Shown here: positions 28,649 through 29,718 of the stretch, piece by piece
Layout of the letters: each line of letters begins with the position of its first letter
Position numbering within the stretch: the first letter of the stretch is position 1
Virus record (IMG/VR): IMGVR_UViG_3300032236_000679
Coordinates: 32,001 to 96,000 of that record
Origin: a virus
Length of the DNA stretch: 64,000 bases
Reading direction: 5' to 3' (one strand)
Program-made: the position numbers and the translations under genes
Notes under the pieces: generated by a model
What the model was told of the DNA's origin: nothing
The model's database searches: none
What the model saw: the letters and a program-made list of their open reading frames with translations, nothing else

Positions 28649-29503
28649 ATGACAGCAATATCAATGAACCCATTAACCAAGCATTTTCGACAGCCTTCAA
28701 TTTACCTAACACTACCAAGTGGCGGTAAGTTTTGGCCTGATGGATCAATTGATTTACCTCTTAACGGACAAATTCCAGTTTACCCAATGACTACCAGAGA
28801 CGAAATTACCATTCGTACACCTGATGCATTGCTTAATGGTGAAGGAATTGTTAACGTAATTAGAAGTTGCTGCCCACTAATTAAAGATCCTTGGAAGATG
28901 CCCAGCATTGATGTTGATGCAGTGCTAATTGCTATCAGAATTGCTAGTTATGGTCAAAGCATGGACATTGATACTATATGCCCTAGTTCAGCATGTAAGC
29001 ATCAAAATAGTCATGCACTAGATCTTACTTTCCTATTAGATGGAATTAAAGCCCCTAATTACGACACCCCAATCGAAATTCAAGGTCTTAAGATTAAGAT
29101 TAGACCACAGAGTTATTTCGAAGGGTATAAGACAAACAACGCAAATTTTGAAGAGCAGAGACTATTACAAGTAGTAAACAGCCAAGAAATGAGCGAAGAA
29201 GAAAAGTTAGAGAAGTATACTATTCACATGCAAAAGCTAGTTGAAATTAGTATGAAGGTAATTGCTACAGGCACAGAATACATCGAAACCGAAGATGGCA
29301 CAAGGGTACACGACTTTGATTTCATCAAAGAATTTTATGACAACGCCGACAATAGAATCGTAAAGGCAGTTCGTAATCAGTTTGATAAGATCAATGAAAG
29401 TATGGCTCTTCCCAGACCACGTGTTCAATGCAGCGAATGTGAATTTGAATATCCTGTAGAAGTAGAGTTTGATTATACTCGTTTTTTCAACAACGCCTCT
29501 TAA
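28649..29503 (+). CDS. Baseplate hub assembly / tail-assembly-chaperone-like protein, gp26-like
   Basis: NPL..HFRQP.IY..LPS.G, PVYPMT..DEI...TPDALLNG, IDVDAVLIAIRIASYG, Cys pairs CPSSAC and CSEC, ends FDYTRFF; T4 gp26-like pattern. Confidence 0.75.
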   Translation: MTAISMNPLTKHFRQPSIYLTLPSGGKFWPDGSIDLPLNGQIPVYPMTTRDEITIRTPDALLNGEGIVNVIRSCCPLIKDPWKMPSIDVDAVLIAIRIASYGQSMDIDTICPSSACKHQNSHALDLTFLLDGIKAPNYDTPIEIQGLKIKIRPQSYFEGYKTNNANFEEQRLLQVVNSQEMSEEEKLEKYTIHMQKLVEISMKVIATGTEYIETEDGTRVHDFDFIKEFYDNADNRIVKAVRNQFDKINESMALPRPRVQCSECEFEYPVEVEFDYTRFFNNAS

Positions 29504-29718
29504 CATTAGATCGTGACGGGATTATTAAGTTAATCGAAGACTATGAACGTCAAGTTAAGGGGCTAAAGGAAGAAGCACTTCGTATGTGTTGGTACATGCG
29601 TGGCGGTCTCACTTATGACGAAGCAGTTGACTTAAGTTTTCAAGAACGAGAAATTATTAACAGTATCATTAAACAAAACATGGAAATTACACAGAAGACA
29701 GGAACTCCATTCTTCTAA
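29482..29718 (+). CDS. Unannotated -1-frame ORF (gp51/gpT-like), probably reached by frameshift from the gp26-like gene
   Basis: Frame open from 29473 (after TGA 29470-72) to TAA 29716-18: FFQQRLLTLDRDGIIKLIEDYERQVKGLKEEALRMCWYMRGGLTYDEAVDLSFQEREIINSIIKQNMEITQKTGTPFF. The first ATG is only at 29584. Confidence 0.65.
   Translation, partial: FFQQRLLTLDRDGIIKLIEDYERQVKGLKEEALRMCWYMRGGLTYDEAVDLSFQEREIINSIIKQNMEITQKTGTPFF

Follow-up and report, generated by a model that had tools for sequence, protein, structure and literature searches.

Does a phage of the T4 superfamily obtain two hub assembly factors from one gene by means of a programmed frameshift? The question is raised by a gp26-like gene in a 64,000-nucleotide (nt) stretch of viral DNA, positions 32,001 to 96,000 of the IMG/VR virus record IMGVR_UViG_3300032236_000679 (123 kb, about 35% complete), the whole of which is called the window here. 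An earlier note, made from the letters alone, had proposed that this gene hides a -1 frameshift site leading into a downstream open reading frame (ORF) without a start codon, and that the two products are the T4-superfamily equivalent of lambda gpG/gpGT. Long-tailed phages characteristically have a conserved frameshift in the tail assembly chaperone gene. Xu, Hendrix and Duda reportedly described in 2004 that a -1 frameshift is conserved in these genes, lambda gpG/gpGT included. In phage P2, E/E' uses a T-rich heptamer. To our knowledge, T4-type phages have so far been treated as an exception. We assign a probability of roughly 0.75 to the reading that a programmed -1 ribosomal frameshift in the gp26-like gene, a member of family PF12322, makes both a 284-amino-acid (aa) gp26-like form and a 356-aa gp51-like form.

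A slippery heptamer at the end of the gp26-like gene

The 3' end of the gp26-like ORF reads CGT TTT TTC AAC AAC GCC TCT TAA. As the CGT at 29480 is in frame with the start at 28649, the heptamer T TTT TTC at 29482-29488 falls in the X XXY YYZ phase, and the coordinates that had been claimed for it are exact. In the -1 frame, a TGA at 29470-72 is followed by open sequence until the TAA at 29716-18, which translates as FFQQRLLTLDRDGIIKLIEDYERQVKGLKEEALRMCWYMRGG...TGTPFF and has 76 codons past the slip. The first ATG, GTG or TTG in this frame is the ATG at 29584, 32 codons past the heptamer. A -1 slip would therefore join 280 and 76 residues into a product of 356 aa beside the 284-aa form (..FDYTRFF joined to QQRLLTLDR..), and both this arithmetic and the junction peptide ..YTRFFQQR.. 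agree with what had been predicted. The features at issue are as follows, in window coordinates.

28649..29503, plus strand: gp26-like gene, 0-frame short form of 284 aa; PF12322, phrog_150, two Cys knuckles
29482..29488, plus strand: slippery heptamer T TTT TTC in X XXY YYZ phase, read from the sequence
29488..29718, plus strand: -1 frame extension, 76 codons and TAA, gp51-type tail; no start before 29584
28649-29488 joined to 29488-29715, plus strand: long form of 356 aa, which requires a -1 slip
29501..29503, plus strand: 0-frame stop TAA, four codons past the heptamer, within the 5' arm of the predicted stem
29495..29504, plus strand: 5' arm GCCTCTTAAC of the predicted stimulatory helix, 6 nt past the heptamer
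29554..29563, plus strand: 3' arm GTTAAGGGGC of the predicted stimulatory helix

TTTTTTC is rare in the window, occurring 9 times on both strands versus 23.8 +/- 5.5 times in dinucleotide-preserving shuffles. This depletion across the whole window fits an avoidance of slippery runs.

Conservation of the heptamer among jumbo phages

Cultured relatives are T4-related jumbo phages, including Atu_ph07, Phosso, PA5oct, RaK2, 121Q, and GAP32, in which the local arrangement is alike. The loci compared came from IMG/VR (44), metagenomes (66), and isolates (10); 118 have a complete gene end, of which 75 are distinct. The proteins of the 75 distinct relatives are 32-51% identical to the window protein, those of the IMG/VR and metagenome loci 35-51% (63% in one short partial locus), and the closest relatives, at 81% and 67% identity, were left out of the DNA comparison. 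A blastn search of the phage collection with the window locus DNA returned no match.

An in-phase T TTT TTY is present in all 75 distinct jumbo-clade loci, as TTTTTTC in 73 and TTTTTTT in 2, and in 10 of 10 cultured jumbo phages. The 0-frame stop follows 1 to 11 codons past the heptamer in every one of the loci, while the -1 ORF runs for 72-88 codons across the clade and is readily alignable, with the consensus FFRxRLLxLxxxEI...CWYMRGG...S.EDR.II..IIKENLETTKKTGLPFF. A scan seeded on the extension motif added 80 further loci, 73 of which have an in-phase run and then a -1 ORF. The earlier note had looked to an alignment of related gene ends, and in that alignment both the phase of TTTTTTC and the -1 codons upstream of the first ATG are indeed conserved.

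The surrounding codons are constrained as well. The codon before the heptamer is AAT, GAT, AGT, ACT, CAT, CGT, TAT, or GCT, eight different residues, every one of them NNT, whereas T occupies the third position in 38% of codons elsewhere in the jumbo-clade genes. The second Phe codon is TTC in 73/75 loci versus 23% of Phe codons elsewhere in the genes. Because TTTTTTC is depleted in the window and the heptamer, its phase, and the -1 ORF are all kept in relatives, the conservation of the heptamer is, on these counts, beyond chance.

Evidence for translation of the -1 frame

Codon-position entropy in the jumbo clade shows a 0-frame pattern upstream of the heptamer (1.18/0.99/1.49) and a -1-frame pattern downstream of it (1.27/0.79/1.60). 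The same switch of frame at the heptamer is seen in a second, cyanophage-type clade. The first -1 codon past the slip encodes Arg in 69/73 jumbo-clade and 56/59 cyanophage-type loci, and in the jumbo clade this Arg is written as CGC (24), CGG (18), CGA (15), or CGT (12), while Ala, Gly, Val, Asp, or Glu is read from the overlapping codon of the 0 frame. Synonymous Arg codons over such varied 0-frame residues indicate that the -1 frame is under protein-level selection ahead of the 0-frame stop, a pattern that re-initiation cannot account for.

No conserved start or Shine-Dalgarno site for the -1 ORF was found among the relatives compared. The first ATG lies anywhere from 3 to 58 codons into the extension across the 75 distinct jumbo-clade loci, and in an exhaustive profile search the stand-alone ORF calls start at varied profile positions, including 1, 4, 7, 10, 21, 35, and 39. 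GenBank records handle the extension in differing ways: Atu_ph07 has a 40-aa ORF that starts at an internal ATG, GAP32 a 58-aa ORF, and Phosso a 76-aa overlapping ORF, and the stretch is unannotated in PA5oct and RaK2. No joined coding sequence representing a slip is present in the GenBank records examined. The comparative evidence of an in-phase heptamer, conserved -1 codons, and lack of a conserved start thus favors the hidden frameshift that had been proposed.

Products related to T4 gp26 and gp51

In T4, gp26 and gp51 are listed as hub assembly chaperones, with gp51 being required and yet absent from the particle (Leiman et al. 2010, PMC3004832). The 0-frame protein of the window matches Pfam family PF12322 (T4_baseplate) with an E value of 2.4e-14 (54 bits versus a cut-off of 24.5, profile positions 9-218 of 219), and a PF12322 match is found in all 46 aligned relatives. 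It also matches phrog_150 ('baseplate hub') with an E value of 1.4e-19, over only positions 4-232 of 282. T4 gp26 (208 aa) and gp51 (249 aa), members of the same two families, each match PF12322 over the whole profile. On phrog_150, T4 gp51 covers positions 13-280, whereas gp26 stops at 235 and the window short form near 233. Because of this difference in coverage, T4 gp51 consists, at the level of profile matches, of a gp26-like PF12322 domain followed by some 50 aa of tail. Like gp26, the short form ends right after the second Cys knuckle at Phe-Phe; T4 gp26 terminates in ..KEFFELL, with the same Phe-Phe, and the heptamer is absent from the end of gene 26.

To relate the extension to this tail, profiles were compared with hhalign. 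The fused products of 37 loci align with 13 T4-type gp51 proteins from the domain through the whole tail (E 3e-5), and the extension alone aligns with the gp51 tail alone at an E value of 2.7e-5 and a score of 27.8. Column-shuffled templates score 9.8 on average and 19.0 at most, and 0 of 120 reach the real score. The aligned motif is (R/K)G..SY.E...(L/M)(S/P).E(D/E)R....(I/L)I(K/E). The gp51 signal appears only profile against profile, the extension profile being negative against the single T4 gp26 sequence. A match of that profile to the single T4 gp51 sequence was N-terminal, had a probability of 6%, and was rejected as spurious. Pfam and PHROGs scans of the extension alone gave no named family; phrog_18291 (function unknown), which matches it, comprises small ORFs annotated in 121Q-type phages.

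These alignments support the view that the short form is the counterpart of gp26 and the whole 356-aa frameshift product the counterpart of gp51. The earlier description of the gene and its downstream ORF as a gp26/gp51-like pair therefore stands in one respect and needs amending in another, as the downstream ORF alone corresponds to the gp51 tail only. In the window, a gp51-type long form, that is, a PF12322 domain with the gp51-specific tail, would arise only by way of a -1 slip.

The AlphaFold model of the short form has a predicted local distance difference test (pLDDT) score of 84.6; in BFVD, it matches best the T4-like baseplate hub proteins that many large myoviruses encode. For the extension, a helical domain is confidently predicted (pLDDT 87.6), for which a fold search in BFVD returned nothing below an E value of 1. 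A sequence search against solved structures gave no match.

The same signal in other T4-type lineages

The cyanophage S-PM2, the vibriophage KVP40, and the pelagiphage HTVC008M have a single PF12322 gene each, and every one ends in an in-phase heptamer (TCT TTT TTC GCA TAA, GAT TTT TTC GTA TAA, and AGT TTT TTT TAA, respectively). The -1 ORF after the heptamer is annotated in these phages as 'gp51 baseplate hub assembly catalyst', and the KVP40 record itself notes its similarity to the T4 gp51 C-terminus. In all cyanophage-type loci (82, of which 59 are distinct), a single codon separates NNT TTT TTC from the stop. The Met chosen by annotators is present in only 29 of the 59. The cyanophage -1 ORF aligns with the gp51 tail from position 2 onward (hhalign E 6e-14) and with the jumbo-clade extension at an E value of 7e-4.

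The small 'gp51' ORFs of cyanophages, HTVC008M, and KVP40 thus share with the window extension their position after gp26, the -1 frame, and an in-phase T TTT TTY. They differ in being annotated as independent genes from an internal ATG, or not at all, and in length, with about 60 codons versus 76 in the window, and the two are only distantly similar. On this evidence, the small annotated 'gp51' ORFs are the same kind of frameshift extension. In the cyanophages ACG-2014i and S-WAM2 (L235 and L236; locus 1213-1395), some 180 nt after gp26 are unannotated and encode the conserved gp51-type extension; such an unannotated stretch after gp26 is common to many cyanophage records.

A word-based search for longer proteins containing the extension found none, whereas an exhaustive search with the extension profile found in-frame fusions, about 20 cluster representatives of 319-351 aa, with 20/20 matching PF12322. 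Their junction, ..LDLDxSxxFR(N)K(L)I.., has a single Phe and lies at the same point as the slip junction. A locus search with one fused protein was empty, and an alignment query retrieved the fusion loci. Six IMG/VR loci show the in-frame fusion in DNA, as in GAA TAT TTT CGG GTT of L237, and all five of the fusion-bearing records searched hold two PF12322-like ORFs side by side. In L237 (2471-4393, IMG/VR 3300043399_000272), a 350-aa long form is followed directly downstream by a 283-aa form without the extension. In L239, L240, L241, and L243, which together with L237 belong to a sister clade of uncultured jumbo phages, the long form is likewise in frame and the T6 run is absent. The second match in the other four fusion records is a divergent upstream ORF without Cys knuckles, whose status as a short form is less sure.

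An in-phase heptamer and one PF12322 gene occur together in the complete genomes of RaK2, 121Q, Atu_ph07, PA5oct, S-PM2, KVP40, and HTVC008M. Two PF12322 genes are found in T4 and in a Slopekvirus, the latter with tandem gp51-like and gp26-like genes. If short and long forms are both needed, the expected pattern is a single gene that slips or else a pair of genes that do not.

Vi01 and RM378 have one PF12322 gene each and non-canonical heptamers. In Salmonella phage Vi01 (L147, NC_015296, ~47522), the sequence after the gene encodes a gp51-like tail in a -1 ORF; A ATT TTC takes the place of the heptamer, and no more than 10 nt lie between the opening of the -1 frame and the stop. In Rhodothermus phage RM378 (L149, NC_004735, ~26459), the end of the PF12322 gene is marked by a T7 run, TCC TTT TTT TGG, and the extension-like ORF, FFGISYDSEEELEKIV..., sits in the +1 frame, not the -1 frame. 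A different recoding event, slippage by the polymerase, or an old error in sequencing could each account for the RM378 arrangement.

RNA structure downstream of the heptamer

The 102 nt past the heptamer in the window fold to -23.5 kcal/mol, including a 10-bp helix between 29495-29504 and 29554-29563 that leaves a 6-nt spacer after the heptamer and contains the 0-frame stop. Across 63 distinct jumbo-clade loci, 68% have an uninterrupted helix of at least 8 bp beginning 2-9 nt past the heptamer, compared with 17% at control anchors within these genes. The mean minimum free energy of the 45 nt downstream is -10.8 kcal/mol, against -3 to -6 kcal/mol at most control offsets in this clade. Equivalent long-range helices of differing sequence are seen in Atu_ph07 and in four further loci (L001, L009, L025, and L038).

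The subclade that shares the four-codon 0-frame tail of the window has a local hairpin, taken from the structure of one alignment member, that is 85% paired, as opposed to 26-52% when the partner columns are slid. This hairpin covaries: in 11 cells both sides have changed, and 0 of 500 shuffles reach that number. RNAalifold on gapless whole-clade alignments gave no consensus structure, because helix positions differ between subclades, and the long-range helix is not conserved across the clade in the register of the window. From these predicted folds, a stimulatory helix is likely for the clade and plausible but unproven for the phage of the window.

Proposed mechanism and alternative explanations

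Comparison of the loci shows that the signal is present and in phase, that the -1 frame is translated starting at the heptamer, and that the products are homologous to gp26 and gp51. In the mechanism that we propose, the majority of ribosomes would end at the TAA after CGT TTT TTC AAC AAC GCC TCT and release the 284-aa short form. A fraction would slip one base back on the heptamer, where tRNA-Phe would pair anew in both the P and the A site; the slip is probably aided by the helix 6 nt downstream that contains the 0-frame stop. The slipped ribosomes would read 76 more codons to give the 356-aa long form, whose helical tail is homologous to the C-terminus of gp51. The slip would fix the ratio of short to long forms, as it does for lambda gpG/gpGT, and the two may act jointly as non-structural chaperones for hub and tape-measure assembly. 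We infer the ribosomal nature of the slip, its efficiency, and the joint chaperone action.

The same 356-aa fusion could come from some mRNAs if RNA polymerase added one U on the T6 run, and the signal is, after all, a homopolymer, lengthened to T7-T8 in HTVC008M, Xoo-sp13, and RAS14. In RM378, moreover, the ORF that resembles the extension lies behind a T7 run in the +1 frame, beyond the reach of a -1 tRNA slip. Such transcriptional slippage is nevertheless unlikely for the window. The codon phase is the same in all 134 distinct loci of two clades and the preceding codon is always NNT, while none of them has the equally long NNV TTT TTT T; a tRNA slip needs the X XXY YYZ phase, and polymerase does not. 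Helices 2-9 nt downstream are enriched, as for ribosomal stimulators, and six T are short for efficient polymerase slippage, known cases of which involve runs of about 8 or more.

Still less probable is that the downstream ORF is a gene translated alone, from an internal or non-canonical start or by re-initiation, with the T run reflecting nothing other than a conserved Phe-Phe. A small ORF is annotated at this place in several records (including S-PM2, KVP40, and 121Q), AAGGAAG stands 11 nt upstream of ATG 29584 in the window, and about half of the cyanophage loci (29/59) have an ATG 5 codons past the heptamer. What speaks against two genes is that no start is conserved, and many records leave the stretch unannotated because no start exists; that conservation at the protein level, with synonymous change, already holds for the -1 codons ahead of any start and of the 0-frame stop; and that the gp51 homology starts at position 2 of the -1 ORF, where the in-frame fusions also join. 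An extra product of internal initiation is possible but cannot explain this conservation. We give hardly any credence to a sequencing or assembly error, or a pseudogene, in which a long gene has been split by a one-base homopolymer indel. Homopolymers are error-prone and in-frame long forms do occur in the sister clade, but the same configuration recurs in over 130 distinct sequences, from independent metagenomes and from finished cultured-phage genomes obtained by different methods, and the 0-frame tail always stops within 1-11 codons of the heptamer.

Several points weigh against the programmed ribosomal frameshift and the chaperone pair that it would produce. All of the support is computational, consisting of sequence comparison and predicted folds. 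The homology of the jumbo-clade extension to the gp51 tail is modest (hhalign probability 74% and 27%) and leans partly on a chain via the cyanophage ORFs. The fold of the window RNA is marginal, with a z of -1.92 and 12 of 200 shuffles as good, and the window itself does not form the local hairpin of its nearest subclade. A second PF12322 gene is possible in the phage of the window, because the record is only about 35% complete. Of the 25 Pfam families that 46 members match at E values up to 1, none is a tail-chaperone family. The comparison with structures of known tail chaperones that had been suggested gave no specific fold match: PDB searches with the gp26-like model (Foldseek, VIA wide and a second look) returned only generic helical-hairpin matches, which fall on residues 153-212 with Z up to 8.6, the other domains not having been searched alone. 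Because no tail assembly chaperone family or fold matched, we infer the chaperone role from the T4 literature and gene order.

A full-text search of the open literature, with subscription journals outside its scope, found no report of a gp26/gp51 frameshift, and none of the database records consulted annotates one.

Genomic context of the window locus

The gp26-like gene is flanked on its left by minus-strand genes for a tape-measure-like ORF, portal, prohead protease, and major head protein, and on its right by gp46/gp47-like nuclease subunits and a gp55-like late sigma factor. The first of these neighbors is as follows.

23783..28582, minus strand: tape-measure-like gene, 1599 aa, divergent from the gp26-like gene; named by position and composition

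This ORF had no family match in Pfam and PHROGs scans, and its placement is like that of ORFs annotated as tape-measure-like in RaK2 and pEa_SNUABM_47. Its divergence from the gp26-like gene, which the earlier note had remarked upon, is correct for this window. The tape-measure-like protein is presumably the client of the chaperone pair. The gap at 29737-30142, after the extension, holds no ORF of at least 40 aa.

Comparison with the T4 and lambda systems

Beyond the shared families and the Phe-Phe end, the window resembles T4 in that the tail of the long form aligns with the gp51-specific tail and the gene lies beside hub and tape-measure genes. In contrast, T4 has two divergently transcribed paralogous genes where the window has one that is recoded. 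The window proteins (284 and 356 aa) are also longer and of low identity to those of T4. T4 makes, in addition, an internal-start product of gene 26, annotated 26', that consists of the C-terminal 95 aa (L055:2303-2590) and is thus a third PF12322-derived product of that phage; no counterpart of gp26' was seen in the window.

With lambda G/GT, the window locus shares a heptamer near the end of the chaperone gene, a position adjoining the tape-measure gene, and a long form made up of the entire short form plus a C-terminal domain. In HTVC008M, the order of tube, gp26, gp51, one ORF, and annotated tape measure corresponds to lambda V, G/GT, H, and in KVP40 and S-PM2 a long unnamed ORF stands at the tape-measure position. 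Unlike in lambda, the window gene and the tape-measure-like ORF are transcribed divergently, a neighboring tube gene is missing, and the placement between tube and tape measure is not found in the window. The window protein also differs in its size, about double that of gpG, and in its two Cys knuckles, which resemble a zinc ribbon. The proposed equivalence to G/GT is thus borne out in architecture and in the gene order of relatives and lacks a family or fold match, homology not having been found. We regard the lambda comparison as an architectural analogy rather than shown homology.

Implications for the T4 superfamily

The evidence from this locus and its relatives indicates that a frameshift like that of tail chaperones, in a different protein family, is used by most of the T4 superfamily. 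We lean, by a small margin of confidence, toward the broader interpretation that the gp26/gp51 pair is the superfamily's tail-chaperone frameshift and that the superfamily has switched repeatedly between two solutions. The slip solution would be that of RaK2/121Q/PA5oct/Atu_ph07-like jumbo phages, cyanophages, a pelagiphage, and KVP40. The two-paralogue solution would be that of T4 and its close relatives, Slopekvirus, and the sister clade of uncultured jumbo phages.

If this is true, the long-unexplained 'catalytic' gp51 of T4 is a fixed long form, and T4 itself would have replaced the frameshift by gene duplication. The slip, the in-frame fusion with a paralogue, and the divergent paralogues form a natural series in which to ask why a fixed chaperone ratio matters. 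Annotation would be corrected in hundreds of phage genomes, where a tiny 'gp51' is called from an arbitrary ATG or the extension is missed. Concrete, testable roles are offered for two T4 proteins whose part in assembly is poorly understood: gp26 would be the short form and gp51 the long one. The requirement for a set ratio of short to long forms would be ancient and general to long-tailed phages.

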